The notes beneath the pieces are model-generated. The model made no database searches. It had not been told where the DNA came from and worked only from the letters and a program-made list of their open reading frames with translations. Positions 43,663-58,363 of a DNA stretch of 64,000 nucleotides are shown in pieces (the stretch's first letter is position 1; each line of letters begins with the position of its first letter). This DNA comes from Mycobacteriales bacterium (lineage in GTDB: Bacteria; Actinomycetota; Actinomycetes; Mycobacteriales; CADCTP01): the NCBI GenBank assembly GCA_036558285.1, contig DATBFW010000137.1, positions 8,697-72,696 on the forward strand, written 5' to 3'. The translations under genes and the position numbers were made by a program.

Positions 43663-44610
43663 TTACGCGGCCGCCCCGACCGGCACCCCGCCGGTCTGGT
43701 TCAGCACGAAGTTGCCCACCGACCGGTTGCTCAGGTGCGTGTAGACGCCGGGGAACCCGGTCGCGCCGCAGCCGATGCCGAAGCTGGTGATCCCGACCTG
43801 GATGAAGCCGGGGGAGCCGACGGCCTTGACGAACATCGGGCCGCCGCTGTCGCCCTGGCAGGTGTCCAGGTTGGTGCGGCCGGCGCAGATCATGGTCGCG
43901 TCGATCGGCACGTCCGCGGTCGCGTACGCGGTGCGGCACTCGGCCGGGCTGACCACCGGCACCTTGGCCTGCTGCATGCGGTCGGGGAAGTGCACGCCGC
44001 CACCACCAGGGCCGGCCGGCTGGGCGATCGTGTTGCCCCAGCCGGTGACCGTGAGCAGGGTGCCCGGCCGCTCCAGCGCGTCGGTGCCCACCGTCACCAC
44101 CGAGATCGGCCGGATGCCGTTGATCGGCGAGGCCAGCGTGACGATCGCGACGTCGTTGGAGAACGTGTCGGGGTTCCACCGCGGGTGGATGGCGATCGCC
44201 GTGACCCGCCGCTTCTGGCCCTGCGTGCTGGTCAGCACGGTCCGCCCGACGACGACCCGCAGGTCCGAGCGCGGCACCTGGCCGGCACCGTTGCCGAAGA
44301 AGTCGACGCAGTGCGCCGCGGTCATGACCTGGGTCGGCGTGATCAGGCTGCCGCCGCAGAACTGGCGCTGGAAGTCGTTGTTGCCGAAGGACTGAGCCAG
44401 CAGCGCAGCCTGGAACGGGAACTGCCCGTTCGACACCGGGCTGCCGCCGACGACCTTGGGGCTGACCGCCGCCGGTGCCCGGACGACGCCGCCCGGTCCG
44501 GTCTGGCTGGGGAACTTCTGCGGTGCGGCCGACGCCGTCGACGCGGTGGCCAGGGTCATCGCCCCGGCCAGGCACGCGGTGACGGCGGCGAAGAGGATGC
44601 GACGGTGCAT
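43663..44610 (-). CDS. secreted S1 (chymotrypsin/trypsin-family) serine protease
   Basis: A signal peptide ending ASA is followed by VVGGSP...QFPFQA, the His motif MTAAHCV, DVAIVTL and the Ser motif CQGDSGGPM. Confidence 0.9.
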   Translation of the reverse strand: MHRRILFAAVTACLAGAMTLATASTASAAPQKFPSQTGPGGVVRAPAAVSPKVVGGSPVSNGQFPFQAALLAQSFGNNDFQRQFCGGSLITPTQVMTAAHCVDFFGNGAGQVPRSDLRVVVGRTVLTSTQGQKRRVTAIAIHPRWNPDTFSNDVAIVTLASPINGIRPISVVTVGTDALERPGTLLTVTGWGNTIAQPAGPGGGGVHFPDRMQQAKVPVVSPAECRTAYATADVPIDATMICAGRTNLDTCQGDSGGPMFVKAVGSPGFIQVGITSFGIGCGATGFPGVYTHLSNRSVGNFVLNQTGGVPVGAAA

Positions 44611-44677
44611 GCCCTGCCTCCCGATTAGGCTGTGATTGGGAAGGCACAGCGTTGCACAACCGGCACCGGCGGCGGGG

Positions 44678-45355
44678 CTAGTGGCCGTTACCCGAGCGCG
44701 TGTCGGCGAGCCCGGTGCGGTAGGCGTAGCTGACCGCCTGGGCCCGGTCCCGCAACCCGGTCTTGGCCAGGATGTGGTTGACGTGCGTCTTGACCGTGGT
44801 CTCGGCGACGTGGATGCGCGCGGCGATCTCCTGGTTGGACAGGCCGGCCGCGATCAGCGCCAACACCTCGGCCTCCCGGGGCGTCAGCCCGTCCGGCAGC
44901 GGTCCGCGCGGGATGGGGACGTCCGCGTCCGGCGGCGGCGGGCTGAGCGCGTCGACGAGGTGGTGGTGCACGGCCGGGTCGAGCGCGGCCCCGCCGGCCA
45001 GCACGGCATGCAGCGCCCGCTCGATGTCGGCCGCCCCGGCGTCCTTGGTGAGGAACCCGCGGGCGCCGGCCCGCAGCGCGTCCAGCACCGAGCGGTCGTC
45101 CGCGTACGTGGTCAGCGCGATCACCGGTGCCGGGTGCCGCTCGTCCCGCAGCCGGCGGATCGCCTCGACGCCGTCGCAGCGCGGCATCCGCAGGTCCATC
45201 AGGATCACGTCCGGGCGCAGCCGGTCGGCCAGCGCCAGCGCGTCCTCGCCGTCCACGGCGGCGCCGACGACCTCGACGTCGGGCAGCCGGCCGAGCAGCA
45301 TGGTCAGGCCGTCCCGGACGATCCGCTGGTCGTCGGCCAGCAGGACCCGGATCAC
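44678..45355 (-). CDS. NarL/LuxR-family response regulator
   Basis: Real part of track ORF 44678..46468(-). GTG 45355 overlaps the kinase stop (GTGA). VIRVLLADDQRIVRDG...ILMDLRMPRCDG is the receiver. The HTH is LTPREAEVLALIAAGLSNQEIAARIHVAETTVKTHVNHIL. Confidence 0.9.
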   Translation of the reverse strand: MIRVLLADDQRIVRDGLTMLLGRLPDVEVVGAAVDGEDALALADRLRPDVILMDLRMPRCDGVEAIRRLRDERHPAPVIALTTYADDRSVLDALRAGARGFLTKDAGAADIERALHAVLAGGAALDPAVHHHLVDALSPPPPDADVPIPRGPLPDGLTPREAEVLALIAAGLSNQEIAARIHVAETTVKTHVNHILAKTGLRDRAQAVSYAYRTGLADTRSGNGH

Positions 45356-46503
45356 GCCGGGACCCACAGCTCGACTGTGAACCCGCGGTCGGTCGCCGTC
45401 GCGGTGAGCGTGCCGCCGAGCAGCTCGGCCCGCTCCCGCATCCCGCTCAAGCCGTATCCGGGGCAGGCGGGTCCGCCGGCGCGCGCCGGGTCGTCGGCGA
45501 GGTCCGCCACGGTGAGCCGGGCGCCGGCCGCGCAGTGGTCGAGCGCCAGCTCGACCCGCTGCGCCGCCGCGTGCCGCCGGACGTTGGTCAGCGCCTCCTG
45601 GGCGACCCGGTAGAGCGCCAGCCGGGCCTGCGGACCGTACGGGCGCGGCCTGCCGGACACGACCAGCCGGCAGGGCACGCCGGTGTCCCGCTCGAAGTCC
45701 CGGACCAGCGCCGGCAGCGACTCCGGCCCGGGCAGCTGTTCGTCGCGCAGCATGCCGATCGCCCGCCGGGTCTCCAGCAGCCCGGACCGGGCCAGTCCGT
45801 GCGCGTGCTCCAGGGTCGCCGCCAGCTCGGGGCTGCCCTCCTGCTCGGCCACCAGCCGGGCGCCCTCCAGCTGGACCAGCAGCCCGGACAGCGTGTGCGC
45901 GAGCACATCGTGCACCTCGCGGGCCAGCCGCTGCCGCTCGGCCAGCGCGGCCGCCTCGGCCTGCGCGGCCCGCGACTCGCGCAGCTCGACCACCAGCCGC
46001 TCGGCCTCGGCGGTGCGCTCCCGCAGCCGGCGCGCGTACCGGCCGGCCGAGTAGAACGCGACCAGCCCGGTCTCCGCGACGAGCACCGAGGTGAGCGGGC
46101 GGTCCGCGGCGACCCCCGCCACGGTGAACGCGACCAGGGTGACGCCGGTCAGCACCGCCCCGGCCCGGGTGGGCAGCCGCGAGCCGGCAGTGCTGGCCGC
46201 GACGAACCCGCCGAGGAAACCGGCGCCGGCCGGCTCGAGCCAGACCAGCACAGTCGAACCCGCGACCAGCAGGCAGGCAAGCACCGGCAGCGCCGGCGGC
46301 CGGCGCAGCCGCTCCGGCCCGGCGCCGAGCAGGCCGAGCGTGCCGACGACGACCGCGGCGAGCGCCAGCAGGACGGGCGCCCGGTCCGGCTCGTTCCGCC
46401 CGTCCGCGCCGAGCAGGAGCACCGCGACGGCCAGCACCGCCGGCCGCAGCGTCCGGAGCAGGTCCCACCGGCTGCGCGCCGGCGGCACCGGGACAGCGCC
46501 CAC
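45352..46503 (-). CDS. sensor histidine kinase (HisKA_3 type)
   Basis: Track ORF 45352..46638(-). It has 4-5 TM helices, the H-box LAREVHDVLAHTLS and GYGLSGMRERAELLGG. The start is uncertain; I chose GTG 46503. Confidence 0.8.
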   Translation of the reverse strand: MGAVPVPPARSRWDLLRTLRPAVLAVAVLLLGADGRNEPDRAPVLLALAAVVVGTLGLLGAGPERLRRPPALPVLACLLVAGSTVLVWLEPAGAGFLGGFVAASTAGSRLPTRAGAVLTGVTLVAFTVAGVAADRPLTSVLVAETGLVAFYSAGRYARRLRERTAEAERLVVELRESRAAQAEAAALAERQRLAREVHDVLAHTLSGLLVQLEGARLVAEQEGSPELAATLEHAHGLARSGLLETRRAIGMLRDEQLPGPESLPALVRDFERDTGVPCRLVVSGRPRPYGPQARLALYRVAQEALTNVRRHAAAQRVELALDHCAAGARLTVADLADDPARAGGPACPGYGLSGMRERAELLGGTLTATATDRGFTVELWVPA

Positions 46504-46685
46504 GTCTCGCAACCTACCCGGGCGCCCGCGGCCGGTCCTCGGCCCGGCGGTGGATCCGCCGCCTCCACCCACCGGTGGACGCCGTGCGCCCCGGGACGTA
46601 CGCGCGGAAATCGATCCGGGCGCCGACGACGCGACCACCCCCGCCGCCGCACGCTCGACGGGCCTGGAGACGAAGGAGGAACGGC

Positions 46686-46865
46686 ATGCTGAGACTGTTC
46701 GGAGTGCGGGTCAACCCGGTCGTCGGGTTGCTGCTCGGCCTGGCTGCGCTCGCCGTCGGCATCGGCACCGGCCGGGTCGGCGTGACGCTGGCCGGCGTGG
46801 TCATGCTGCTGGTCGCCGCCACCGGTGCGGTGCAGCGCCGCCAGCGGCCGGACGACCGGCGGTGA
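46686..46865 (+). CDS. small membrane protein (59 aa) translationally coupled to the ABC-2 exporter
   Basis: MLRLFGVRVNPVVGLLLGLAALAVGIGTGRVGVTLAGVVMLLVAATGAVQRRQRPDDRR has two predicted TM helices. GAAGGAGGA lies 6 nt upstream of ATG 46686. The stop overlaps the next GTG (GTGA at 46862-46865). Confidence 0.55.
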   Translation: MLRLFGVRVNPVVGLLLGLAALAVGIGTGRVGVTLAGVVMLLVAATGAVQRRQRPDDRR

Positions 46866-47794
46866 CCGCGCTGGTGGCCGACCGGCTGGGCAAGCGGTAC
46901 GGGTCCACGGTCGCGCTGGACGAGGTGAGCTTCCGGATCGGCGCCGGCCAGCTGGTGGCGGTGCTCGGCCCGAACGGGTCCGGGAAGACCACGCTGGTCG
47001 AGCTGCTGGCCGGGTTCAGCGCGCCGACCGGCGGGACGGTCCGGGTGCTGGGCGCCGACCCGCGCCGCGGCGGGCCGGCCTGGCGGGCCCGGATCGGGCT
47101 CGTGCCGCAGGAGACCAGCCTGGACCTGCGGCTCACGGTGGCCGAGGTGCTGCGCGCGTTCGCCGCCGCGTACCCGAGGGCGCTGCCGGTCGGCGACGTG
47201 CTCGCGCTGATCGACCTCGCCGCCGAGGCCGGCACCAGGATCGGCGCGCTGTCCGGCGGCCAGCGCCGCCGGGTCGACCTCGGGCTCGGCCTGATCGGCC
47301 GGCCGGAGGTGCTGTTCCTGGACGAGCCGACGACCGGGCTCGACCCGCGCGCCCGGCGGCGGGTGTGGGCCTGCGTGCGCGACCTGACCGCCGGCGACAC
47401 CGCGGTCGTGCTCACCACCCACTACCTGGACGAGGCCCAGCAGCTGGCCGACCGGGTGCTGGTGCTGGCCGGCGGCCGGCTGGCGGCGGACGCGACCCCG
47501 GACGAGCTGCGCGCGCACGCCGCCGCGCCGACGATCCGGCTGCCCGTCCCGCCGGCCGCGGCCGCCGACCTGCCACCGGCGTTCCGGGGCCACCTCGACC
47601 GCGACGAGCTGGTGCTGCGCTCGGCCGACGTCGGCGTCGACCTGGCTGGGCTGCTCGGCTGGGCCGCACGCGCCGGCGTCGACCTGTCCGGGCTGCAGGT
47701 CGGCCCGCCCAGCCTGGAGGAGGCGTACCTGGTGCTGACCGGGCAGACCGACCCGCTGCGGACGGAGCGTCGAGGTGAGCCGAGCCATGCCTGA
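46862..47794 (+). CDS. ABC transporter ATP-binding protein (DrrA/ABC-2 type)
   Basis: Real part of track ORF 46091..47794. Walker A GPNGSGKTT, signature LSGGQRRRVDLGLGL, Walker B LFLDEPTTGLD. Confidence 0.9.
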   Translation: MTALVADRLGKRYGSTVALDEVSFRIGAGQLVAVLGPNGSGKTTLVELLAGFSAPTGGTVRVLGADPRRGGPAWRARIGLVPQETSLDLRLTVAEVLRAFAAAYPRALPVGDVLALIDLAAEAGTRIGALSGGQRRRVDLGLGLIGRPEVLFLDEPTTGLDPRARRRVWACVRDLTAGDTAVVLTTHYLDEAQQLADRVLVLAGGRLAADATPDELRAHAAAPTIRLPVPPAAAADLPPAFRGHLDRDELVLRSADVGVDLAGLLGWAARAGVDLSGLQVGPPSLEEAYLVLTGQTDPLRTERRGEPSHA

Positions 47795-48515
47795 CGTACC
47801 GGCCCTGCGCGCGCACGTGCACTACCAGCTGCTGCTGCTGGTCCGCACCCCGCGGGCGGCGTTCGCCGGCCTGCTGCTCCCGCTCGGGCTGCTCCTGCTG
47901 CGCGGCGACGGCCATCCCGGCGTCGATCTCGTCGCCGGCCTGACCGTGCTGGGCGCGCTGTCCACCGGCTACCTCACCCACGCCGCCGGGCTGGTCACCG
48001 CGCGGGAGAGCGGCGTGCTGCGCCGCTGGCGGGCCAGCCCGCTGCCGCCGTGGGCGTTCTTCGGCGGCCGGATGGTCGCCACCACCCTGGTCGCGGTCGC
48101 CGGCGCGGCCACCACGCTGGCCGTCGCCGCTGCCGCGTACCACGTCCGGCCGGACCCGGCCGGTGCGGTCGGCCTGCTCGTGGCGGTCGTCCTCGGCACG
48201 CTGTGCGTGGCCGCGCTGGGCACCGCGGCGACCGCCGTCGTCCCGACCGCGGAGAGCGCGCAGCCCGTGCTGTCGCTGACCTTCTACCCGCTGGTGCTGC
48301 TGTCCGGCGCCCTCGGCGGTACGGCCGGCGGCTCCGGCCGGCTCGGCGAGGTGCTGAGCCGGCTGCCGGTCGAGCCGATGATCGACGCGGTCACCCGCGC
48401 GCTGCGCCCGGGCGCGGGCGTGCTGCCGCCGGCCGCGGACCTCGCCGTCCTCGCCGGCTGGGCGGTGGCCGGCGTGATCGTCTCGCTCGTCAGCTTCCGC
48501 TGGCAGCCGAGCTGA
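47775..48515 (+). CDS. ABC-2 type transporter permease
   Basis: 246-aa ORF with six hydrophobic segments. It overlaps the ATPase 3' end. An alternative start is ATG 47787. Confidence 0.8.
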   Translation: MSRAMPDVPALRAHVHYQLLLLVRTPRAAFAGLLLPLGLLLLRGDGHPGVDLVAGLTVLGALSTGYLTHAAGLVTARESGVLRRWRASPLPPWAFFGGRMVATTLVAVAGAATTLAVAAAAYHVRPDPAGAVGLLVAVVLGTLCVAALGTAATAVVPTAESAQPVLSLTFYPLVLLSGALGGTAGGSGRLGEVLSRLPVEPMIDAVTRALRPGAGVLPPAADLAVLAGWAVAGVIVSLVSFRWQPS

Positions 48516-49125
48516 GACCGCCCGGAGGCGCCGGCGCAACCGCTGCGTCGGCCGGCGCCCCGGCCGGGTCGGTCCCGCCGGCAGGGTCGGTCCCGCCGGC
48601 AGGGTCGGTCCCGCGGGCAGGGTCGGTCCCGCGGGCAGGGTCGGTTCTGCCGGCCGGGTCGGCGCCGTAGCTTCGTCCGGTGGTCGAGCCGGCCTCGTCC
48701 GGCGACGCCTGCCCGCCGTCGGACTTCGACTGCAGGGCGACCCACTGGGTCGCCTCGCGACTGGTCAGGTCCTCGATACGGAGCGCGAGCAGCGCGTCCG
48801 GGCGGTCGGCGTCGGCGTAGTCGCCGGCCCCGGCGGTCCACAGGGCCTTCTCCCGTTCCATCGCCGCGTTCGTCCACCGGTAGCGCACCCAGTTGTCGTG
48901 GAAACGGTAGAGCTGCTGGATGCCCTCGAGCACGACGATGAGCCCGCCGAGCGAGCCGGTGATCAGCGTGGGCAGGTCGAGCCCGGCGGCGACCGGGACG
49001 GCGGCGGCCAGCACGATCTGGGCGACCTTGATCCCGCAGTACCAGATGCGCGCCGTCGTCGCGTGCCGGTCGTACCACTGGATCTGGCGGTTCACCCGCC
49101 GCAGGACCTGCGTCTCATCGGACAT
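48490..49125 (-). CDS. DUF4231 (SLATT-like 2-TM) protein with repetitive GTDPAG tail
   Basis: VLRRVNRQIQWYDRHATTARIWYCGIKVAQIVLAAAVPVAAGL...LGGLIVVLEGIQQLYRFHDNWVRYRWTNAAMEREKALW matches the DUF4231 pattern (WY..., two TM helices, then the xW..YR.TaE.L.rEk motif). The tail is ...GADPAGRTDPARGTDPARGTDPAGGTDPAGGTDPAGAP... Confidence 0.75.
   Translation of the reverse strand: MSDETQVLRRVNRQIQWYDRHATTARIWYCGIKVAQIVLAAAVPVAAGLDLPTLITGSLGGLIVVLEGIQQLYRFHDNWVRYRWTNAAMEREKALWTAGAGDYADADRPDALLALRIEDLTSREATQWVALQSKSDGGQASPDEAGSTTGRSYGADPAGRTDPARGTDPARGTDPAGGTDPAGGTDPAGAPADAAVAPAPPGGLSSAASGS
48561..48668. repeat. 18-bp tandem repeat x6 (in-frame hexapeptide repeat of the DUF4231 tail)
   Basis: The unit CGGCAGGGTCGGTCCCGC starts at 48561, 48579, 48597, 48615, 48633 and 48651. 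The outer copies are diverged. Confidence 0.85.
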
Positions 49126-49287
49126 GGCACCCTCCAGGTCGATCGGGCCACGAAGCTACCGACTCATGGACGCCACGCGCAGACAGTGCCGTGATCCCGG
49201 GCACGGGCGGGAACACGAGGGTGTCGGGGTGGCTGCCGCCAGCGTGGAGCGCGGGTAGACGGCCAGCCGGAGGGTCAGGCTCGTTCG

Positions 49288-49600
49288 ATGACGTTTCAGC
49301 AATTCCACGCGGCCGACTGGTTGGCGCACTTCGTCCAGGTCGGATACCCGGCGGCGCGGCCACTGGCGGCCGGCGTGGAGGGAGCGGTCTATGACCTCGG
49401 TGACGAGACGGTAGCGAATGGGCCGCCGGCGCCCGACCGAGCTGCTGTCGTGGCAGGCTTTCTACGCAGACCTAGCAGCCGGCGGCCCGCCGTTCGACAC
49501 GCCGGAGATTCTGCGCGTGGACGAGATCCCCGGCGTGGCTGGGCATCACCGCCGCTTTAGACCTCTGACGCCACCACCAGCCGCATGGGCGGACGTCACG
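49288..49600 (+). pseudogene. frameshifted and 3'-truncated APH-family (phosphotransferase) gene fragment
   Basis: Frame 1 (49288..) reads MTFQQFHAADWLAHFVQVGYPAARPLAAGVEGAVYDLGDETVA. The family-like continuation RRRPTELLSWQAFYADLAAGGPPFDTPEILRVDEIPGV is in another frame (track ORF 49418..). The kinase catalytic region is absent, because the HIT gene 3' end begins at 49642. Confidence 0.55.
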
Positions 49601-49641
49601 TCGCTGCACCGGCGGCGGTTGCCTGGGTGCGAGCTCGTGGT

Positions 49642-50151
49642 TCAGCTACCGCTCACAGAATCCAGATTCATGCGGATGCGAAGCCGGCTCGCCAGGTCGG
49701 CCTGCGCCTGGTCCGGGATGTCAAGGTGGCCGCGCTCGGGGGCCAAAGCGGTGACCTGCTGCTGCTCGTACGGCACACCCGGCGGCAGCGGCACCAGATG
49801 CCAATGGACGTGCCGGTTGCCCTGCAGGCTGCCCAGACTCAGCACGTAGAGCCGTTCGGTCTCCACCTCGGCGACCAGCGCCCGCCCGGCGGCATGTACG
49901 ACTCGCTGCACGGCCAGATACTGGGCCACGTCCACTGCGACGACGTCCTCGACGTGTGTCGCCGGCGCGACGAGCAGGTGGCCCGGCCACAACGGGAAGC
50001 GGCTGAGAAACGCCACCGCGACCCCGTCCCGGTGGACAACGTGGTGCGCGTAGTTCGGCTTGTCAGCCAGCAACTCGCAGACGAAACACGCCCGCCGGAC
50101 CAGCCGGTGGTACGCCTGCCAGTCCATCTCGACCCGCCGCGCGTCCGCCAT
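49642..50151 (-). CDS. HIT (histidine triad) family protein
   Basis: C-terminal 169 aa of track ORF 49642..50760(-), from ATG 50151: MADARRVEMDWQAYHRLVRRACFVCELL...NRHVHWHLVPLPPGVPY (HxHxHxx triad). Confidence 0.8.
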   Translation of the reverse strand: MADARRVEMDWQAYHRLVRRACFVCELLADKPNYAHHVVHRDGVAVAFLSRFPLWPGHLLVAPATHVEDVVAVDVAQYLAVQRVVHAAGRALVAEVETERLYVLSLGSLQGNRHVHWHLVPLPPGVPYEQQQVTALAPERGHLDIPDQAQADLASRLRIRMNLDSVSGS

Positions 50152-50311
50152 GGCCGTGAGTATCACCAACCCGCGGTCCTCCTCACGGACCGTGGCGTCC
50201 TGCTCGCCGGCGACATGCTCCAACGTCCTGATCCTCTTGCGGCGGTGGGCTGCGCGGGGTTGTGGCCTGTCCGGGCTCCCGCTGGGCCGTAGGTCGGCGT
50301 CGACTGGGTGG

Positions 50312-50951
50312 TCAGGATTCCGCTGGGGCGGTGGGTAGCCAGAAGCGAGTTGGCCGTTGCCGCAGTTCTCGAGAATGCCACGCGCGCGTTCGATGACCGC
50401 GCGGGAACCGAGGTTGGTAGGGTCGCACGTGAGCAGCGCAGGGTTGATGCCCAACGCCTGGGCGACAGGAAGGGCGCGGGCCAGCATCAGCGTGGCGTGG
50501 CCTCGTCGGCGCGCCGAAGGTCGGACGTCGTAGCCGAGGTGGCCGCCGGTGATCCGAAGGCGCGCGTTCAGCCGGTGGCGGATCGCGATTCGTCCCAGGT
50601 ACCGGGCGCCGTCGACCCACCGCAAGGTCGTGCACAGCACATAGCCGTCGGGTCGGGGCCAGTTCTCCGATGCCTGCCCGCGCAGCTCCCGCACGTACCG
50701 GGCGAACCCCTCCGGTGTCGACCAGGAATCGGAGAAGCCACGGATCTCAGCACCGATCATGGTGTGGTCATCGGCGACCCGCGGCCTTCGGCACGGAACT
50801 CGGCCATCGCTGCGAGGAACGACGCATGCACCTCGAGGACCGGCGGGGCCAGTGCAGCGACCACGCGCTGTGTCTTACCCAGCAGCACCTGGATGCACGA
50901 CCCGCCAGTGCTGCGGGCTGAATCATGGATCGGGTCGCCGTCCATGGACAT
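50312..50951 (-). pseudogene. GNAT acetyltransferase (COG3981-like) disrupted by at least two frameshifts
   Basis: The N-part ...LAPPVLEVHASFLAAMAEFRAEGRG is in track ORF 50757..50951(-). The middle DDHTMIGAEIRGFSDSW...YLGRIAIRHRLNARLRITGGHLGYDVRPSARRRGHATLML...SRAVIERARGILE is in ORF 49642..50760(-). The family-like end LRQRPTRFWLPT...stop is in ORF 50312..50635(-). Confidence 0.6.
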
Positions 50952-50968
50952 GCCGAAGGGCGAACGGT

Positions 50969-51430
50969 CTAGCCAGGCGGGGACGCGGACGGCTCGTCCA
51001 GGGTGGCGTGCACACTGATCTCTACGTTCCCCTGGAGGGCTCGCGAGACCACGCAGCCCCGTTCGGCGTCGTGGGCGGCCCGATCGAAGGTTGCGGCGTC
51101 CGCCCGGGGGACCACGCCGTGCACGTCGAGATGGCTCGAGGCGATCGCCGGCGTCGCAGACGTCTCCAGTGTCACAGTTGCGGTGACCTGCAGGCGCTCA
51201 GGAGGCGTTCCCTGTCCGGCAAGGATCGACCCGAGGGCCATCGTGAAGCATCCGGCGTGCGCGGCCGCGATGAGCTCCTCCGGGCTCGTCTTGCCCTCAG
51301 GCTCACCGAACCGCGATGCGAGCGTGATGGGCAGAGGGCCGATAGCACCGCTGCCCCCGGACGCGACCCCGGAGCCGCGTGCGATGCTTCCGGTCCATTC
51401 GACCTGCGCCGTTCGGTGTACAGCCGCCAT
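50969..51430 (-). CDS. osmC: OsmC-family peroxiredoxin
   Basis: C-terminal 153 aa of track ORF 50969..52108(-). ATG 51430 lies 6 nt after AAGGAG. MAAVHRTAQVEWTGSIARGSG...KTSPEELIAAAHAGCFTMAL...ERGCVVSRALQGNVEISV carries both conserved Cys. Confidence 0.9.
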   Translation of the reverse strand: MAAVHRTAQVEWTGSIARGSGVASGGSGAIGPLPITLASRFGEPEGKTSPEELIAAAHAGCFTMALGSILAGQGTPPERLQVTATVTLETSATPAIASSHLDVHGVVPRADAATFDRAAHDAERGCVVSRALQGNVEISVHATLDEPSASPPG

Positions 51431-51499
51431 TGGCTTCTCCTTCGTCCGTCGGTTGAGCTTAGACCCGGGCGGTGCCGGCGAGCAGAGCGTACGAGCCGG

Positions 51500-51516
51500 A
51501 TGTCCACAGTGGACAT
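51500..51516. promoter_or_regulatory. 17-bp perfect palindrome upstream of osmC
   Basis: ATGTCCAC-A-GTGGACAT lies 70-86 nt upstream of the osmC start codon. Confidence 0.3.
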
Positions 51517-51604
51517 GGCCGCACGGAGCGCCTGTCAGGAAGGTGGCGACGTGCGCCGAACTGGCCGCTGATGTGCGGGACAGCTGGGAGCGGCTGCTGC
51601 ATCC

Positions 51605-51916
51605 GTGAACAACCGGCGCGACTGTGCGGTGACCATCCCCAATGGCAACGGCCCGCCCGGCGAGGCGCCCAGCCCCAACCAGCACGGCACCGGCGCACTG
51701 TGGACCGTGCTCCCGCCTGACGGCATCGACACAGGAGGCGAAGCGGAACCCAACGGCTCGACCAGCAAGAAGTACCCGTGGTGGACGGTCGGCACCGCAG
51801 GCCAGCTCACCATCAACGGCCGGCGGCTGGACACGCCGGCACCGCCGCTGCGCGCCCGGACCAACAGGGGAACACCGGAAGCCGGCTTCGCCGAAGTCGC
51901 TGACGGTCGCTTCTAG
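51605..51916 (+). pseudogene. probable 5'-truncated fragment of a secreted hypothetical protein gene
   Basis: The 103-aa ORF has real-protein composition and good third-position GC: ...CAVTIPNGNGPPGEAPSPNQHGTGALWTVLPPDG...KKYPWWTVGTAGQLTINGRRLDTPAPPLRA... No signal peptide is present, and an in-frame TGA lies 12 codons upstream of the only start (GTG). It could alternatively be an intact small gene. Confidence 0.35.
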
Positions 51917-52130
51917 TCCATTGCGCGGGCCGCCTGTTGGTCGACTCGCGGGTACGGAGCCGGCTCGCGAGCCGAGGCCGAGTCCGTCGATCTCGACCTG
52001 CTCGCCCACGCTGCCGCGCCGCCGCGGCCGTAGCGCTGGCTCGGCTTGCCTGGCCGACCGCGGATCGGCGGCGGTATGCAGGTCGGCCATCGGCGGCGTC
52101 GGCTCCACGAGCGCCCGCAGAACCGCTTCG

Positions 52131-54725
52131 TCAGCGGGCAGCGCCCGTGGTGTCCTGGGCGTAGGCGAGTGCGTCGGCTGGTCGCAGCCGCGCGCCAGCG
52201 GCCCACTCTTGCTCGAAGCTGGACTTCTCGAGCGCGGACCGGGCGGCGGCTACCCACTCGCCGAGAAGTGGTTGCAGTTCAGGCCAGGCGGTGATGCCGA
52301 CGACGTTCCGCCGGTGTGCCGCCGCCGCGTGCAGCCGTACCGCCGCTTGCGGGTTGCCCTCGGCCCGGGCGACGGCGGCGAACCCGTCGAGGCAGTATGC
52401 AAGCCCCTCCTGGTCCAGGAGGTTGAAGTTCGCGGCGACGCTGGCTCGGAAGTATTCGCGGGCCCCGGCGGGGTTCCCGGCGAGGAGCGCGGTGAATCCG
52501 AGCTGGTGGAGGACGAGCGTCTGCAGGTGCTCGTTGTCCACCTGCTCAGCAGCCCGCAGGCACTCCTCGTACACGGCGGTCGCGCGCGAGAGGTCACCGG
52601 ATCTCCTGGCCAGCTGAGCGAGCGTCGCCAGGGCGTAGGCCGTGTTGGCGAGATCGCCGCTGGCGCGGAGCTGGCTGACGCTCTTCTCCAGCGTCTGGCG
52701 TGCCTCCGGTGCGTCGTCGACGCCGGCGAGATAGGCGAGGCCGGTGCTGGCCCGGACCACCAGCTCCAGGTCCCCGAGGCGACCGCCGATGCGCAAGGCC
52801 TCCGCCAGCATCGGCTGCACACCCTCGACCCGCCCCACCGTAAGGTTCGCGACGGCCCGAGCCCACAGCAGCCTCCCACGCGCCGCCTCGCCGAGCCGGG
52901 ATGCGGACGGCAGCGCGACGAGTTGGCCGGCGAACGCCACCGACTCGGGGAGGAGGCTGCGTGACCACAAGTAGAAGGCCAGTGGGATGAAGATCCGGTA
53001 CGCGGTCTCGGCTTGGTCGCGGGCGATGGTGTGCTGCCACGCCACCCGCAGATTGCCCAGCTCATCGTCGATGCGGGCGGCCCACGGCCGGTGGGCGGTT
53101 CGCATGCCGTCCGCGGCTTCCTCGACGAGGTGACCGACGAACACGACCAGGCGATCCGCCGCCGCCTCTCGCTCGCCGCGTTCGTCCAGCCGCTCCGCCG
53201 CGTACTCGGCGACGGCACCAAGCATCCGGAACCGGGGACCCGCCGATCCGCCGTCCTCGACCGTGACGAGGCTCTTGTCCACCAACGAGGACAGCGTGGT
53301 CATGACGTCCGGGTGCGACCGTCCGGGTTCGGTGCCGGCGCCGACCACCTCGGCGGCCTGGACCGTCCAACCGCCGACGAAGACCGACAGCCAAGCGAGG
53401 AGGGCGCGTTCACCGGCATCCAGCAGCCGGTAACTCCAGTCCACAGTGGACCGGAGGGTGCGCTGCCGCTCGGGCAGGTCAGCGTAGTCGCCACCCAGAT
53501 CGAGCCGGTCGCCGAGCCGCTCCAGCAGCATCGCCGGCGGCAACACCCGGATCCGGGCAGCCACCAGCTCGATCGCCAGCGGGACGCCGTCGAGGCGGCG
53601 GCAGATCTCGGCCACAGCCGCGGCGTTCTCGCCCGTCAGCGAGAAACCCGGTCGCGACTCGGCGGCCCGCGCGAGGAACAGCTGCACGGCCGGCGAGACC
53701 GTTGCCTCCTCCGGCTTGATCTCACCGTCCTGTTCCGGCACCGCCAGCGGTCGGAGCGACCACTCCTGCTCGCCCCGCACGCGCAGCACCGTCCGGCTCG
53801 TGGCCAGCACCTTCAGGTCGGAGACCATCGCCAGCAGTCGGGCGACATCACGGGCGGCGGCCGGAAGCAGGTGTTCCAGGTTGTCCAGGACCAGCAGTAC
53901 CCGGCGGCCGGCGAGCCGGTCGGCCAGCACGTCGAGCTCCCGGCCGCGGCCAGGCGTCTGGACTCCCAACTGCGCCGCGATGGCGCCCAGCATCCGAGCA
54001 GGCTCCGGCACCGGGGCGAGATCGACGAACCACACCGCCTCGGCCGTGCCCTTCGCGAGTGCAGCGGCCACATCGAGGGCCAGCCGCGTCTTCCCGACGC
54101 CGCCCGGCCCGGTCACGGTGACCAGCCGTGCGTCCCCGCGGAGCCGAGCGACCAGCTCCTCCCGGTCGCCGTCGCGCCCGATCATCGCCGTCGGCGGCAC
54201 CGGCAGCCTGGCCGGACGCAACCCCGCCGGCGTCTCCGGACCGCGGGCGGTGAAGCGCTCGGTGAGCAGGACCGCGAGGTCGTCCGAAAGCAGGCTCGTC
54301 AACTCGTCAGCGTCGGCGAACACCTTGTAGGACGCGCGATCATCAGCCTGGACGCGGTGCAACAGCTCCGTCAGCCGCGGCTCCCGATCGACCGCCGGCG
54401 CCTTCACGTAGATCAACTTTGGCCGGTCCCCGGAGAGCAGATACTCGTCCTCCAGTCCCGACACCGACTCTCCCGGCGCCACCCACCCGTACCGCTGCCA
54501 GTAGATCCCGACGAACACATCGCTCTGCGCCAGGTAGGCCCGGTAGAGCTCTCGCGGCGGGTGTGGACGAGCACCCAACTCGAACATCACCGGGGTCAGC
54601 CGCAATCCGCTGATCGCCGCCCGCGCTGCCCGCCGCTCCTGCGCCAGCTCTTCCAGGGTCGACGAGACGAACACCCGCACCCGCCGATCCGGCGTCGCGA
54701 TCCTGCCCCTTTCCGCCTCTGACAC
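52131..54725 (-). CDS. STAND NTPase: N-terminal DUF4062 domain + NB-ARC ATPase + C-terminal TPR repeats
   Basis: 864-aa ORF. DUF4062 pattern at aa 16-150 (RVFVSSTLEELAQERRAARAAISGLRLTPVMFE...DVFVGIYWQRYGW...KLIYVK). Walker A GPGGVGKTRLA (aa 206-216), Walker B RVLLVLDNLEH (aa 275-285), LATSR and GVPLAIELVAA follow. A winged-helix-like RTLRSTVDWSYRLL...LSVFVGGW comes next, then about 400 aa of TPR-like repeats. Confidence 0.9.
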   Translation of the reverse strand: MSEAERGRIATPDRRVRVFVSSTLEELAQERRAARAAISGLRLTPVMFELGARPHPPRELYRAYLAQSDVFVGIYWQRYGWVAPGESVSGLEDEYLLSGDRPKLIYVKAPAVDREPRLTELLHRVQADDRASYKVFADADELTSLLSDDLAVLLTERFTARGPETPAGLRPARLPVPPTAMIGRDGDREELVARLRGDARLVTVTGPGGVGKTRLALDVAAALAKGTAEAVWFVDLAPVPEPARMLGAIAAQLGVQTPGRGRELDVLADRLAGRRVLLVLDNLEHLLPAAARDVARLLAMVSDLKVLATSRTVLRVRGEQEWSLRPLAVPEQDGEIKPEEATVSPAVQLFLARAAESRPGFSLTGENAAAVAEICRRLDGVPLAIELVAARIRVLPPAMLLERLGDRLDLGGDYADLPERQRTLRSTVDWSYRLLDAGERALLAWLSVFVGGWTVQAAEVVGAGTEPGRSHPDVMTTLSSLVDKSLVTVEDGGSAGPRFRMLGAVAEYAAERLDERGEREAAADRLVVFVGHLVEEAADGMRTAHRPWAARIDDELGNLRVAWQHTIARDQAETAYRIFIPLAFYLWSRSLLPESVAFAGQLVALPSASRLGEAARGRLLWARAVANLTVGRVEGVQPMLAEALRIGGRLGDLELVVRASTGLAYLAGVDDAPEARQTLEKSVSQLRASGDLANTAYALATLAQLARRSGDLSRATAVYEECLRAAEQVDNEHLQTLVLHQLGFTALLAGNPAGAREYFRASVAANFNLLDQEGLAYCLDGFAAVARAEGNPQAAVRLHAAAAHRRNVVGITAWPELQPLLGEWVAAARSALEKSSFEQEWAAGARLRPADALAYAQDTTGAAR

Positions 54726-54764
54726 GCCGCCATCGCCGCCGATCTTCGGTCCGGGAGCGTTGCC

Positions 54765-54804
54765 CTGCCCACCGGATTATGGTCCGCCATAGTCCGGTGG
54801 GCAG
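54765..54804. promoter_or_regulatory. 18-bp-stem inverted repeat 40-80 nt upstream of the STAND start codon
   Basis: CTGCCCACCGGATTATGG (54765-54782), spacer TCCG, CCATAGTCCGGTGGGCAG (54787-54804). 17 of 18 positions are complementary. Confidence 0.5.
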
Positions 54805-54899
54805 CGGCGTGCCGTCCGCCCTCGACGTGTGGGCACGGGCTGGCCCGGGGTTGCCGTCGACGCGAGTAGACCCGAGGCCGCCGGCGGACCACAGTGCGT

Positions 54900-55240
54900 G
54901 GTGTCGAACCACGCATAGTGTCGCCCTCCTCCGGCCGCGCGCACGGCTGGGTGCCGGAGGTGGCGACGACCACCAACCCGAGCGGCGGGAGGCCGACCGG
55001 GTGCGGTCCGGCGAGGCCTGGTCGCCGTCCCGCTCCAGCAGGGTCGCCGAGGTCATCCCGAACGTCTGCCGGGACCCGGTCGAGGATCGCCGGCAGCGCC
55101 CGTTCGCCGCGCAGCACGTCGCCGGCCGCGACGGAGAGCACCTCGGCCGCGGCGGTGATCCTGGCCGCCTGGCCGGTACGCCGGGCCGCGATGCCGCAGA
55201 TCGCGACCGGCGCGGCCAGCGCCGGAATCGCGAGGAACCC
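54900..55240 (-). pseudogene. remnant of a KdpD-like (DUF4118/GAF) sensor histidine kinase
   Basis: Frame-hopping gives ...FLAIPALAAPVAICGIAARRTGQAARITAAAEVLSVAAGDVLRGERALPAILDRV, then RQTFGMTSATLLERDGDQ in another frame, then GLVVVATSGTQPCARPEEGD in the first frame. This resembles the TM-end/linker/GAF start of KdpD-type kinases as I recall them. No HisKA or HATPase part is present. Confidence 0.35.
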
Positions 55241-55634
55241 GCCCGGTCGCCGCGGGGCGCCCTGCACCCGACCGTCCTGCACCGTTCGCTCGTTCGCCTG
55301 CTGGACCTGTTCGCAGGCGAGGTTGCTCCTGACGCGGAGCGCGGGACAACGGTTCTCACGGCACGCTAACGGCGCCTCGGGCATGTCTCACAGGCCGCCA
55401 ACGCCACCTGGGGCGGTGCTAGAGGCGCGTGAGAAGCGTCCCCGGCGGCGTGAGCGCGATGTGATAACCGCGGCCGGCCGGGTGGGTGGCACCGGGGCAT
55501 CGTGATCGGTATCGGGCTCGGCGGAGGCCACGGAAAGGAATCGGCGTGTCACTGGCGAGGGGCCGGCGGTCGCGTGTGGACCATCGGACTGTCCGGAGTG
55601 GACGGTGACGGCGATCACGCCGGCCAGCCGCGGC

Positions 55635-56345
55635 GTGCGCACCTGGCTGCTCGCCGGCGCCGACCAGCGGCCGACCCGCGAGCCCGGCCCGTACGCGAGC
55701 CCGCCGTCGGCGCATCGGCGTCACCAGTGGTGGCAGGTGATGTGACTGACCGGCGTGGACTACTTCTCCACCCTCGGCTACCAGCCGGGTATCGCGGCGC
55801 TGGCCGCCGGCGTGCTCTCGCCGATCGCGACGCTGGTGCTGGTTCGCCGTCACGCTGGCCGGCGCGCTGCCGGTGTACCGGCGGGTGGCCCGGGAGAGCC
55901 CGCGCGGCGAGGCTCGATCGCCATGCTGGAGCGGCTGCTGCCGTTCTGGCGGGGCAAGCTGTTCGTGCTGGTGCTGCTGGGTTTCGCGGCGACCGACTTC
56001 CTCATCACGATGACGCTGTCCGCGGCAGACGCGACCGCGCACGTGGTGGAGAACCCGGACTTCGAGACCGACCTGCACGTCCGCGGGGAGATCCACCAGG
56101 ACCAGCGGGTGCTCACGGTCGCCGGCTCGTCGGTGCCGAACACGCTCGCCGCGCTGGTGCTGCACGTGCGCGACCTGACCGGCCGGCGCCCGCATCTCTA
56201 CTTCGGCTGGACGGAGGGCAGCCCGGTCGCGAACTTCCTCCGCTACCTGGTGCTCGGCCAGGGCGAGGTCGCCCCAGTCACCCGGGAGGTCCTGCGCCGC
56301 GCCGAGCCGGACCGAACCCGCCGCCCGCACGTCCACGTCGGCTGA
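55635..56345 (+). pseudogene. remnant of a large APC-like permease gene (in-frame stop, local frameshift pair, internal deletion)
   Basis: VRTWLLAGADQRPT...HRRHQWWQVM-TGA(55743-55745)[22 protein letters not shown]... Between about 55841 and 55912 the TM-like reading [23 protein letters not shown] is in another frame. After about 100 aa the sequence jumps to a hydrophilic C-terminus (...[48 protein letters not shown]). Confidence 0.5.
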
Positions 56346-56349
56346 GGCG

Positions 56350-57177
56350 TCACTGGCGCGCTCCCGCGGTCTGCTCGGCATACCAGGCGTCGAGCGCGGT
56401 GAAGAACTCGGCCGGCTGGTCGTACCAGGGGAAGTGGGCGCTGCCGGCCAGCTCGACCAGGTGCGCACCGGCCACCCGGCGGGCGATCCGGCGCGCCTGC
56501 GCCGGCGGGAGCAGCACGTCGTACGAGCCGGCGACGACCAGGGTGGGCGCGGTGATCGCGGCCAGCCGGTCGACCGCGCTCCAGCCGGCCAGCTCGTCCA
56601 TCGACCGGGCCGTCGCCTCCGGCGCCGGGACGACCGCCATCATCCGCCGGGTCAGCTCGTCCACCGGGTAGCGGTGCACGTAGTAGTGCAGCACCGGCAG
56701 CATCGCGGCGGCCGCCTCGGCGACCGAGCCCGGGGCGGACGCGAGCGCCGCGGCCAGGTCGGCCGGCACCGGGGCGCCGAGGTCGGCCGGGTCCTCGCCG
56801 GCACCGAGCCCGCCTGGCCCGGTCGAGACCAGGACCAGGCTGCGGACCCGGTCCGGATGCCGGATGGCCAGCTCCTGCCCGATGAACCCGCCGTACGAGT
56901 GGCCGATCACGTGCACCCGCTCGGCGCCGAGGTGGTCGGCCATGGCGACCGCGTCGTCGGCCAGCTGCGGCATGGTCAGCGTGGCCAGCGGCGGCCGGCC
57001 GGACCGGCCGTTGCCGCGGTGGTCGTAGCGGACCACCCGCAGCCGATCGCCGAGCCGGTCGAACTCCCGGTAGAGCGACTGGTCCAGGCCGAGCCCGCCG
57101 TGCAGGACCAGGCAGACCGGGCCGGACCCGACCTCGTCGTACCAGAGCGTGGTGCCGTTGATCGTCGCGGTGCTCAT
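56350..57177 (-). CDS. alpha/beta hydrolase
   Basis: C-terminal 275 aa of track ORF 56350..57450(-), from ATG 57177. It has the oxyanion LVLHGGLG, the nucleophile elbow GHSYGG and the C-terminal His in GSAHFPW. Confidence 0.9.
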   Translation of the reverse strand: MSTATINGTTLWYDEVGSGPVCLVLHGGLGLDQSLYREFDRLGDRLRVVRYDHRGNGRSGRPPLATLTMPQLADDAVAMADHLGAERVHVIGHSYGGFIGQELAIRHPDRVRSLVLVSTGPGGLGAGEDPADLGAPVPADLAAALASAPGSVAEAAAAMLPVLHYYVHRYPVDELTRRMMAVVPAPEATARSMDELAGWSAVDRLAAITAPTLVVAGSYDVLLPPAQARRIARRVAGAHLVELAGSAHFPWYDQPAEFFTALDAWYAEQTAGARQ

Positions 57178-57283
57178 CGCGTCCTCCGTCCGCCGGTGTC
57201 GACCGGAGGGCGCCAGACCGGATCTGGCGGGCCGCCAGACCGGATCGCGCGCCCATCGGGTGTCCCGACGACGGAGGTGGACC

Positions 57284-58339
57284 ATGACGACCGACAGGAG
57301 CCCGGACGACGTGCTGGAGCAGCTGACCGCCGAGCTGGGCGGCTCGCTGGGGACGGTGCTGACCGGTCTGGGCATCCGCTGCGGCCTGTGGCAGGCGCTC
57401 GCCGGTGCCGGGCCGCTGACCGCGGCCGAGGTGGGCCAGCGCGCCGGCATCGTCGAGCCGTACGCGCGGGAGTGGCTGCGGGCCCAGGCGGCCGGTGGCT
57501 ACCTCGACTACGAGCCGGCGACCGACCGGTTCACGCTGCCGGAGCCGGTCGCGGTGGCGCTGCTGCAGGCGCCCGGCGGCGCGATGGCGGACGCGTGCCT
57601 GTCGATGTTCGCCTCGATGGGTGCCGGGTTCGCCGAGTTCGAGCGGGCGTTCCGGGCCGGGCAGGGGTACGGCTGGGACCGGCGCGACGCGACGTACTGG
57701 CAGGGCACGGACGGGCTGACCAGGGCCGTGCTGCCGCCGGCGGTGCTGGCCGGCGCGATCGAGCAGCTGCCCGGGATCGCCGACCGGCTGCGCGCCGGCG
57801 GGCGGGTCGCCGACGTCGGCTGCGGGTACGGCGCGCCGACGATCATGCTGGCCCAGGCGTTCCCGGCGGCTCAGGTCACCGGGTTCGACTACCACGACGC
57901 GTCGGTGGCGGCGGCCCGCAAGGCGGCGGCCGAGGCCGGCGTCGGGCCGCGGGTCGGGTTCGAGGTCGCGGCCGCGAGCGAGCTGCCGGGCGGCGGGTAC
58001 GACCTGGTCACCTTCGTCGACTCGCTGCACGACCTCGGCGACCCGGTCGGCGCGCTGACCCGCGCCCGCGCCGCGCTCGCTCCCGGCGGTGCGGTGTTGC
58101 TGGTCGAGCCGCCCGGGGCCGACGGCGTGGCCGGCAACCTCACCCCGGTCGGGCGGATGTTCTACGCGGTCTCGACGTTGGTGTGCACCCCGAACGCGCT
58201 GTCGCAGGGCAGCTCGGCGTTGGGCACGCTGGCCGGACCGGCCCGGCTCACCGAGACGGCCCGGGCGGCCGGGTTCGGCACGGTCCACCCGGTCGACACC
58301 GACGCCCCGATGAACCTCATGCTCGAGCTGCGGGACTGA
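57284..58339 (+). CDS. class I SAM-dependent methyltransferase with N-terminal winged-helix-like domain
   Basis: Track ORF 57149..58339, started at ATG 57284 after GGAGGTGG. Motif I is VADVGCGYGAPT, and the post-I acidic residue is in GFDYH. Confidence 0.9.
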   Translation: MTTDRSPDDVLEQLTAELGGSLGTVLTGLGIRCGLWQALAGAGPLTAAEVGQRAGIVEPYAREWLRAQAAGGYLDYEPATDRFTLPEPVAVALLQAPGGAMADACLSMFASMGAGFAEFERAFRAGQGYGWDRRDATYWQGTDGLTRAVLPPAVLAGAIEQLPGIADRLRAGGRVADVGCGYGAPTIMLAQAFPAAQVTGFDYHDASVAAARKAAAEAGVGPRVGFEVAAASELPGGGYDLVTFVDSLHDLGDPVGALTRARAALAPGGAVLLVEPPGADGVAGNLTPVGRMFYAVSTLVCTPNALSQGSSALGTLAGPARLTETARAAGFGTVHPVDTDAPMNLMLELRD

Positions 58340-58363
58340 GCCGACTCAGGGCACCATCGCGCT

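Follow-up and report, generated by a model that had tools for sequence, protein, structure and literature searches.

At positions 48490-56349 of the 64-kb stretch of Mycobacteriales contig DATBFW010000137.1 analysed here (from now on referred to as the window), a patch of lower-GC DNA, in which intact genes are interleaved with broken ones, lies between two conserved flanks. Alignment with related loci makes it very likely that this patch is the scar of a lost Kdp potassium-uptake locus, which has become a dumping ground for DNA that is foreign or in decay. Its most interesting piece is a seemingly recently transferred unit carrying an intact DUF4062-STAND-TPR gene.

The window has a G+C content of 75.0% overall and of 93-100% at the third codon position (GC3) of real genes, similar to high-GC Actinobacteria, and the nearest public relatives of its flanking genes are uncultured Actinomycetota metagenome-assembled genomes (MAGs). 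The patch as a whole reaches 71.7% GC and its core (49280-54916) 70.8%, compared with 77.9% in the left and 78.4% in the right flank. GC3 is 0.80-0.87 for every core gene or fragment and 0.96-0.97 for the flanking genes, and the best-frame GC3 of 600-nt windows averages 0.826 inside versus 0.930 outside (Mann-Whitney p = 2e-21). A drop in composition had been reported in a first-pass annotation made from the sequence alone; the 36 G+C it counted in the 60-nt line 49621-49680 are exact and place that line in the 1st percentile among all 60-nt lines of the window, and both GC and GC3 depart strongly from the flanks. This departure is combined in the core with variable presence among relatives, the block being absent from the three related loci L001, L002 and L003.

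The ancestral kdp locus and its deletions

Loci L001 and L002 were returned by an ABC-2 permease scan of species-representative genomes, L003 was found via a homologue of the transporter remnant described below. L001 follows window 37001-49253 collinearly (about 92% identity) and then continues, as assigned by Pfam, with a DUF3995-like gene, kdpD, kdpC, kdpB and kdpA on the minus strand. L003 encodes kdpC-kdpB-kdpA-kdpF, a 162-aa open reading frame (ORF), an APC-like transporter (about 1.9 kb), an alpha/beta hydrolase and a methyltransferase, and is 91% identical to window 56058-59846. Together, the alignments of these two loci show the ancestral order: ABC exporter, SLATT gene, DUF3995-like gene, kdpD-kdpC-kdpB-kdpA-kdpF, small ORF, APC-like transporter, hydrolase and methyltransferase. 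It follows from the gene order of L001 and L003 that the right flank of the patch is the old right neighbour of kdp while the left flank, including the SLATT gene, is its old left neighbour.

Both flanks are stable. On the left, an ABC ATPase and an ABC-2 type permease (46860-48515, plus strand) are collinear with L001 (92%) and L002 (88%), and are followed by an intact SLATT/DUF4231 gene (48490-49125, minus strand; PF14015 63 bits, NF033634 SLATT_1 101.9 bits). SLATT orthologues adjoin the ABC exporter in L001 and L002, neither of which carries any of the other genes of the patch. Because of this conservation, the gene belongs to the stable flank; it is intact, as the first-pass annotation stated, but not part of the variable patch to which it had been assigned. 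Synteny with L001 and L002 stops at a first junction (49255-49287) directly upstream of the start codon of an APH remnant, with blastn matches ending at 49251-49253 and the three-way alignment diverging at about 49275-49285. On the right, an alpha/beta hydrolase (56350-57177, minus strand, 275 aa) and an Rv2258c-like methyltransferase (57284-58339, plus strand, 351 aa), both assigned by Pfam, have the same lengths in L003 and in the independent JGI metagenome contig L084, and the segment 56350-58339 is 91% identical to L003. The tidy operons described on either side of the patch, an ABC-2 exporter and a hydrolase/methyltransferase pair, are thus found and are collinear with relatives.

Between these flanks, only 276 bp of the kdp genes were kept, and nothing in the window corresponds to the kdpA, kdpB and kdpC DNA of L001 and L003. 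The kept piece (54917-55192, minus strand) is a kdpD sensor-kinase remnant 83% identical to L001 12938-13232, with a 21-bp deletion and 1-bp indels. It corresponds to the segment between DUF4118 and HisKA of the L001 kdpD gene, which carries PF02702, Usp, DUF4118 and HisKA domains, and it refines the KdpD-like kinase remnant previously noted at about 54900-55240. A second junction (55190-55195) connects the middle of kdpD with the 5' end of the small ORF that precedes kdpF: window 54918-55191 corresponds to L001 12938-13232, and window 55183-55940 to L001 19991-20738. About 6.76 kb are missing here, comprising the N-terminal part of kdpD, kdpC, kdpB, kdpA, kdpF and most of the 162-aa ORF. The junction sits at a short, imperfect microhomology (GGGCCGCGA / GGCCCGGGA), and the 6.76-kb deletion is 275 bp distant from the imported DNA. 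Beyond the junction, positions 55193-55634 hold the first ~31 codons of the 162-aa ORF (minus strand; tblastn match of the L003 ORF at 55282-55115) and the old divergent intergenic region between kdp and the transporter, which aligns to both L001 and L003. On the other side, L001 has 1.5 kb, consisting of the DUF3995 gene and the 3' end of kdpD, where the window has 49280-54916. No DUF3995 remnant was detected in the window by tblastn, the single match being an antisense overlap with the SLATT gene. As a by-product of the kdp deletion, a 262-aa chimeric ORF (54596-55384, minus strand) composed of the first ~31 codons of the 162-aa ORF, the kdpD fragment and spacer DNA was created, which gene callers would annotate and which is probably meaningless.

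The divergent neighbour of kdp, an APC-like transporter, is likewise a remnant (55635-56345, plus strand) as judged by alignment to L001 and L003. A TGC to TGA change (Cys to stop) at 55743-55745 makes the conserved HxWWQVMCLTGVDYF start region read QVM*LTG; 23 codons are garbled by two indels, +1 at 55843 and -1 at 55911; and a 1,204-bp internal deletion at window 56057/56058 joins L003 6537 to L003 7741. The permease remnant with an in-frame TGA recognized in the first-pass annotation is therefore real, and the two indels and the 1,204-bp deletion are to be added to its lesions.

The same locus is damaged differently in relatives. In L001, kdpB carries two +1 insertions (15583-17744) and kdpD a frameshift between HisKA and HATPase (12040-12940). 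The transporter gene of L003 is interrupted in its middle part by a TAG codon (7156-7158), where homologues read ...AMAGLLNLVPRYL. L091 (7704-11835), from a 69% GC genome, has kept kdpE and kdpD remnants and has lost kdpFABC with end points different from those of the window; its transporter is split into 3 ORFs by, among others, three +1 insertions in one 70-nt stretch. From these independent lesions at the same locus in L001, L003 and L091, we infer that selection on Kdp has been relaxed clade-wide. Since the lesions differ between lineages, the Kdp pump and its divergent neighbour decay together and repeatedly, and a weaker lead from this joint decay in four lineages is that the APC-like transporter divergent from kdpFABC may be functionally tied to Kdp.

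Two further observations concern the transporter. The same G/C-rich segment of about 70 nt (window 55820-55915, L091 10100-10180, proteins P0038 and P0041) carries frame-restoring sets of indels, namely +1/-1 in the window and three +1 in L091, and P0041 is garbled over the same stretch. A compensated frameshift inherited in common with L091 was considered and rejected, as the indels lie at different positions and are independent events; the segment is either an indel hot spot or a stretch tolerating scrambling. In addition, many transporter homologues (P0003, P0004, P0009, P0013, P0016 and P0032), one of them from a Streptomyces isolate, consist of one ORF each, which runs in frame from the N-terminal membrane part straight into the C-terminal ~45-125 residues, with a fusion point that differs between them. 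No full-length homologue (about 600-650 aa) was present among the best 120 matches. This could reflect recurrent internal deletion or a bias of the search.

A mosaic of imported DNA in place of the DUF3995 gene and the 3' end of kdpD

The segment 49280-54916 has no DNA counterpart in L001 by blastn. Judging from the alignments, this 5.6-kb block is a mosaic in which four or more pieces meet at break points inside genes: an APH remnant, a segment with a HIT gene, a GNAT pseudogene and an OsmC gene, a lipoprotein fragment, and a 2.9-kb unit containing the STAND gene. An 87-bp spacer (54830-54916) without a match in L001 or in two further loci containing the STAND gene (L088 and L090) separates this last unit from the kdpD remnant. 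The proposal in the first-pass annotation that the STAND gene replaced most of an ancestral kinase/permease locus was essentially right, but STAND is only one 2.9-kb piece of the 5.6-kb mosaic, the replaced locus is the whole of kdpFABC-kdpD plus the divergent APC-like transporter, and most of that locus was lost in the separate 6.76-kb deletion.

The APH remnant (49288-49568, plus strand) is 73-85% identical over the fragment to PF01636 homologues which are 313-314 aa long when intact. By tblastn, residues 1-42 are found at 49294-49416 and residues 46-85, in a second frame, at 49421-49540, while the last 8 residues (GITAALDL) and the stop codon follow in a third frame at 49542-49568, leaving about 220 codons missing. 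With residues 1-85 and the last 8 of a 313-aa homologue, and no Pfam APH match, a complete kinase fold with catalytic loop is lacking, and the gene is by its sequence a remnant and not a functional family member. It had been described as a fragment read in two frames at 49288-49600; it is indeed broken, and three frames are involved. A 120-nt stretch at 25343-25461 shows 75% identity to the central part of the intact APH homologue in L086 and L087, a hint that another gene of the APH family may lie about 24 kb upstream.

The HIT-family hydrolase gene (49642-50160, minus strand; PF01230, 31 bits versus a cut-off of 21.5; GC3 0.87) is intact, its HxHxH triad (HVHWH) aligns to HIT proteins in the PDB, and it gave a weak ThsC-type match in PADLOC (1.5e-6). 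It is followed by a GNAT acetyltransferase pseudogene (50312-50864, minus strand) from a family of about 180 aa, in three frames whose segments lie at 50855-50772, 50769-~50370 and 50347-50324, with frameshifts near 50770 and at 50350-50370. By tblastn with the homologues P0217, P0219 and P0220, residues 3-30 fall in frame -3, residues 32-165 in frame -2 and the RFWLPTAP tail in frame -1. Thus, the three-frame reading of this gene proposed earlier (at 50312-50951) agrees with the frame map, which derives from an exhaustive search of representative genomes; the re-joined GNAT sequence had no match in a phmmer search of the PDB. The OsmC-family peroxiredoxin gene (50969-51424, minus strand; TIGR03562, 140.6 bits versus a cut-off of 85.8; GC3 0.80) is intact as well and aligns over its full length to E. 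coli OsmC (1nye/1qwi), with both Cys motifs (AHAGCF and ERGCVVS) present. Pfam and NCBIfam matches bear out the HIT, OsmC and STAND genes as intact. HIT and OsmC are undamaged, and the selection test reported below covers STAND.

The lipoprotein fragment (51618-51916, plus strand) represents residues ~50-147 of a family of about 180 aa without a Pfam model, and is 85-88% identical to P0121 and P0122. Lacking the first ~50 residues with the signal peptide and VVGCS lipobox as well as the last ~33, it is an internal piece of the gene, which refines the start-less secreted-protein fragment annotated before at 51605-51916. It is cut on both sides, and its right-hand cut is the boundary of the STAND unit. 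DNA similarity to the locus of an intact homologue (L085) extends only over 51618-51920. In the same way, loci with intact APH or lipoprotein homologues share DNA similarity with the window only over the fragments and have no other gene in common with the block, and a tblastn search of plasmids with both fragments gave no match. The HIT, GNAT, OsmC, APH and lipoprotein genes are ordinary accessory genes, three of them dead. All five broken genes listed in the first-pass annotation were in this way recovered and refined against intact homologues or relatives.

Searches for machinery that might have moved this DNA were blank, in agreement with the earlier statement that integrase, transposase, tRNA and terminal repeats are absent. 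No integrase or transposase domain was found in a six-frame Pfam scan of 49100-52130 (E <= 1), in which only GNAT, HIT and OsmC matched and which missed the APH and lipoprotein pieces, for which full-database homologues were needed. As to the remainder, 52131-54725 is the STAND gene and 54917-56349 aligns entirely to kdp and transporter DNA of relatives. No tRNA or tmRNA was detected in the whole 64-kb window and no Rfam match at 44-60 kb, and repeat searches at the region boundaries, including direct repeats, gave only short, low-identity, chance-level matches typical of high-GC DNA. Promoter and terminator scans found none, with counts below shuffle expectation, and are uninformative in 72% GC DNA.

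Outside the block, several features of the window were noted. The ABC ATPase of the left flank (plus strand) starts near 46860 in the frame of ORF 46091-47794, and carries Walker A (GPNGSGKTT), signature (LSGGQ) and Walker B (LFLDEP) motifs; ORF 46825-47778 was rejected as the ATPase, having no family match. The ABC-2 type permease (47775-48515, plus strand) has weak DrrB/ABC-2 NCBIfam matches, and its stop is overlapped by 26 nt by the 3' end of the SLATT gene. The C-terminal tail of the SLATT protein contains GTDPAG/R hexapeptides encoded by an 18-nt tandem repeat (48560-48662, 5.7 copies, 92% identity); compared with L001, this array is expanded (211 vs 184 aa), with almost no L001 blastn counterpart for 48571-48666. 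Further to the left, within 10 kb of the patch, two single-gene differences from L001 were found, a 232-aa ORF without Pfam match (39752-40450, within 39560-40479) and a secreted trypsin-like serine protease (43663-44610, PF00089 175 bits, within 43625-44676), at both of which the L001 flanks abut within 2-55 bp. Two large AAA_16 ATPase genes bracket the area, one at 36911-39520 (minus strand), also with a GerE/LuxR domain, and one at 58364-61390 (plus strand); both are kept in relatives, have a core-like GC3 of 0.97 and lie outside the patch. Finally, the lowest-GC stretch of the window is found at 26000-31000 (67.6% at 28-30 kb). As a second accessory patch it was rejected: it encodes an ROK regulator and a peptide/oligopeptide ABC transporter (SBP_bac_5, BPD_transp_1) with GC3 of 0.93-0.97, and its GC dip is due to amino-acid composition.

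The DUF4062-STAND-TPR unit

The STAND unit (51917-54829, minus strand) consists of the STAND gene with 104 bp upstream and 214 bp downstream. In a protein search, copies of the gene were found on long contigs at 95%, 93% and 85% identity. At the DNA level the unit recurs in L088 (9912-12826, 95.5% identity) and in L090 (3755-6664, 94.4% identity). In both loci its end points are those seen in the window, with which neither shares any further DNA, and one of these end points is the exact stop of the lipoprotein fragment. In L088 the STAND gene is surrounded by nitroreductase, AraC, epoxide hydrolase and PemK genes, and in L090 by Lsr2, a phage-type integrase and an MmeI/ResIII/Eco57I restriction cluster. 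The unit has 71.5-71.9% GC in both, where its flanks have 66-69%, compared with 78% for the flanks in the window. For the STAND gene, the window and L088 show a synonymous divergence (dS) of 0.087, below the dS of 0.13-0.27 of core genes between the window and its close relative L001. The ends of the unit, including those in L088 and L090, show no terminal inverted or direct repeats beyond chance-level matches.

The 2.9-kb unit is best read as a recent horizontal transfer of a discrete segment, because 94-96% identity and the same end points are found in unrelated contexts in 66-69% GC genomes. Given its own sharp end points, one of which cuts the lipoprotein gene, the unit would therefore have arrived separately from its present neighbours. 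A conserved multi-gene cassette around STAND was rejected: 80 more distant homologues are without conserved neighbours, OsmC, GNAT and SLATT genes lying beside none of the 80 and a HIT gene beside 2, both weak. Exact-sequence look-ups of the STAND, OsmC and SLATT sequences found no record. In L090 the gene is called as a truncated 716-aa product, though DNA similarity runs to the end of the unit, and the setting of that copy, with Lsr2, integrase and restriction-modification cluster, looks like a real defence or mobile island.

The STAND gene (52131-54725, minus strand) is intact and encodes 864 aa, arranged as an N-terminal DUF4062 (residues ~14-110), a P-loop NTPase (~180-520) and a TPR sensor region (~520-864). 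DUF4062 is matched by PF13271 at residues 17-95 (68.9 bits versus a cut-off of 24.7), and the NTPase and TPR regions by AAA_22, NACHT, NB-ARC, TPR_12 and TPR_MalT, with HTH_77 precomputed for close homologues. Walker A (GPGGVGKT) and Walker B (LLVLDNLEH) motifs are present in the translation. The closest named relatives, from Geodermatophilus, are 63-64% identical. Conservation falls along the protein, from DUF4062 (63-81%) over the NTPase (40-62%) to the TPR region (21-33%), and the ratio of nonsynonymous to synonymous divergence (dN/dS) relative to L088 rises from 0.14 to 0.23 to 0.44, with 0.28 overall. This overall ratio means that the gene is maintained by purifying selection, with the sensor end least constrained, and the protein is probably still functional.

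Two bioRxiv preprints of 2026 have shown DUF4062 to be a TIR-like NADase which acts in abortive-infection phage defence and spreads horizontally, with E97 as the catalytic residue of KpSwz (10.64898/2026.05.01.722283; 10.64898/2026.06.25.731849). KpSwz is the best PDB sequence match of residues 1-175 of the STAND protein, with a weak E value of 0.045 (phmmer). In a MAFFT alignment with 25 homologues, E92 in the motif SGLEDEY aligns with catalytic E97 of KpSwz (the E of SFTE, chain 10wc_A), from which placement the phmmer gap is off by 2 residues. SGLEDEY is invariant in 53 homologues, and F19 lies within a VFVSST motif corresponding to the N-terminal aromatic motif. An AlphaFold2 (AF2) model (pLDDT 82.7) has as its top Foldseek PDB matches TIR-STING 9lmq, DNPH1, BcmB, RPS4 TIR and SARM1, with TM of about 0.5-0.56. 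The STAND protein is most likely, by these similarities, an NLR-like sensor with an NADase effector. In such a mechanism, the variable TPR end would bind a trigger, the STAND NTPase would oligomerise and the N-terminal TIR-like DUF4062 would, by domain homology only, hydrolyse NAD+.

Two points count against this assignment. PADLOC matched the protein to no Avs/bNACHT or other defence model, with only mad8 at 5e-4 over 58 residues, and a regulatory rather than immune role is possible, given the 80 distant homologues without conserved neighbours. The family is also very large in soil Actinobacteria and its members are usually annotated as 'ATP-binding protein' or 'BTAD regulator', so that a regulatory role has to be considered.

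Swarozyc/KpSwz and Evangelion/Eva01 share with this protein the N-terminal DUF4062, the catalytic Glu and the TIR-like fold, as well as a patchy distribution with horizontal spread into differing neighbourhoods. Unlike the 864-aa protein described here, they are small single proteins (about 180-330 aa) in which a phage protein is bound by a short auxiliary domain. The STAND protein is not a member of either system, as DUF4062 is followed by a STAND NTPase and TPR and only the effector domain is in common. Its layout is closer to that of eukaryotic DUF4062-NACHT proteins (TEP1, NWD1) and of bacterial NLR-like proteins. Similar to Avs and NLR-like STAND sensors, it combines an N-terminal effector, a central NTPase with Walker A and B motifs and a C-terminal repeat sensor, in which dN/dS is highest here. 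It differs from Avs and bNACHT proteins in that no PADLOC model matches and in that its effector is DUF4062 and not a nuclease, protease, SIR2 or canonical TIR domain.

The unit passes between genomes of very different GC content with reproducible end points, and without a recombinase or terminal repeats of its own. Tentatively, and with a chance we put well short of even, it may be a self-contained, horizontally mobile immune cassette encoding an actinobacterial NLR-like sensor with a DUF4062 TIR-like NADase effector. If so, the DUF4062-NTPase-repeat layout of eukaryotic TEP1 and NWD1 would also be found in a very large bacterial family with at least 8,000 database relatives.

Origin of the patch and its meaning

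Comparison with relatives shows the events behind the patch. Illegitimate recombination at the microhomology deleted about 6.76 kb, from the middle of kdpD to just upstream of kdpF, and another deletion took 1,204 bp out of the transporter, in which a nonsense codon and two indels arose as well. In addition, 5.6 kb of lower-GC DNA took the place of the DUF3995 gene and the 3' end of kdpD (about 1.5 kb). Under relaxed selection on Kdp, the site would tolerate recurrent gains and losses of DNA through illegitimate recombination, no dedicated recombinase being needed. In the four related loci L001, L002, L003 and L091, content or lesions at the site are different in each, while the flanks are collinear at 88-95% DNA identity. 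The first-pass annotation had described a variable, recombination-prone region rather than a classical mobile element, and the synteny comparison together with the blank searches for integrase, tRNA and repeats is in line with that description. Its further term, defence-island-like, is overstated for one immune-type imported gene and no complete PADLOC system.

Three other origins were weighed. If the genes were intact in the organism, the frameshifts and junctions would be indel errors or chimeric joins of a metagenome assembly, and it is true that the nearest relatives are MAGs, that the window apparently comes from an uncultured population, that several lesions are 1-bp indels in G/C runs and that the exact look-ups of STAND, OsmC and SLATT gave no second copy on record. 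Assembly noise is argued against by three results: the flanks of the window and L001 differ by zero indels over 2,560 + 3,147 bp; contig L084 (3,992 bp) is 99.8% identical to window 55310-59303 and encodes the same 196-aa transporter remnant ORF, with one residue different and the same TGA, two indels and 1.2-kb deletion; and the majority of the lesions, being deletions of 0.6-6.8 kb or nonsense substitutions, are no homopolymer slips. Internal gene fragments of 300 bp amid unrelated DNA are also not expected from chimeric joins, and the relatives do not hold the same genes in intact frames but lack them in place, so that we regard an artefact as highly improbable. No more credible is a maintained defence or stress island in which SLATT, HIT, OsmC and STAND form a selected module and the pseudogenes are incidental. 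Purifying selection on the immune-type STAND gene, the prediction of SLATT as a conflict-system pore effector (NCBIfam) and the ThsC-type match of HIT would fit such a module, but SLATT is conserved with the ABC exporter in relatives without everything else, no gene is regularly found next to STAND homologues, none of the proposed partners accompanies the close STAND copies in L088-L090, and more than half of the gene-derived segments of the patch are dead. PADLOC recognised no system, a search for clustered defence systems giving only weak single-domain matches (HIT/ThsC-type, 1.5e-6; mad8, 5e-4).

Somewhat less remote, though still unlikely, is a decayed classical island, the 5.6-kb block being the rest of one integrative element inserted once at or near kdpD, with its integrase and ends since deleted. 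The distinct and fairly uniform composition of the block (GC3 0.80-0.87), the STAND copy of L090 beside a phage-type integrase, Lsr2 and a restriction-modification cluster, and truncated cargo genes, which are typical of old islands, are in its favour. Yet searches of the block and its surroundings turned up no integrase, transposase, tRNA or direct repeats, the end points that the STAND unit shares with two other genomes, one cutting the lipoprotein gene, speak for a separate arrival, and the contexts of intact APH and lipoprotein homologues have nothing else in common with the block. A lost kdp locus that repeatedly took up and lost DNA is thus preferred, and the following weighs against it. 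Independent assembly support exists only for the 56057/56058 junction and the transporter lesions; the junctions at about 49280, 49540, 51618, 51917, 54829, 54917 and 55192 rest on one assembly, and the two GNAT frameshifts and the APH frameshift are of 1-2 bp, which read errors could mimic in principle. Long-read assembly may underlie L001, L088-L091 and possibly the window, in which case some of the 1-bp lesions seen in relatives may be errors. No intermediate state was seen among the relatives from which to reconstruct the order of events, and the kdp loss described refers to this locus.

The case is a new instance of known genome plasticity, clear but ordinary, and does not overturn current understanding. 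As in other regions of genomic plasticity, stable collinear flanks enclose content that differs per relative, with lower GC and GC3, internally deleted remnants and no dedicated recombinase. It differs from them in that the ancestral occupant can be named (kdpFABC-kdpD and the divergent transporter) and in that independent lesions in at least three other lineages point to clade-wide relaxed selection, not a single accident. With respect to kdpFABC-kdpDE systems, L001 and L003 hold canonical kdpF-A-B-C-D genes at this position, of which the window keeps the 276-bp kdpD piece; the operon is deleted in the window and frameshifted or deleted in L001 and L091.

The patch provides a base-level example of how the site of a dispensable operon turns into a variable accessory patch without mobile-element machinery. 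It also documents that the Kdp pump and the transporter next to it were lost convergently in several lineages of uncultured soil Actinobacteria. The recently transferred and selectively maintained DUF4062-STAND-TPR gene, in turn, would be a candidate for a DUF4062 NADase effector in actinobacterial NLR-like receptors.

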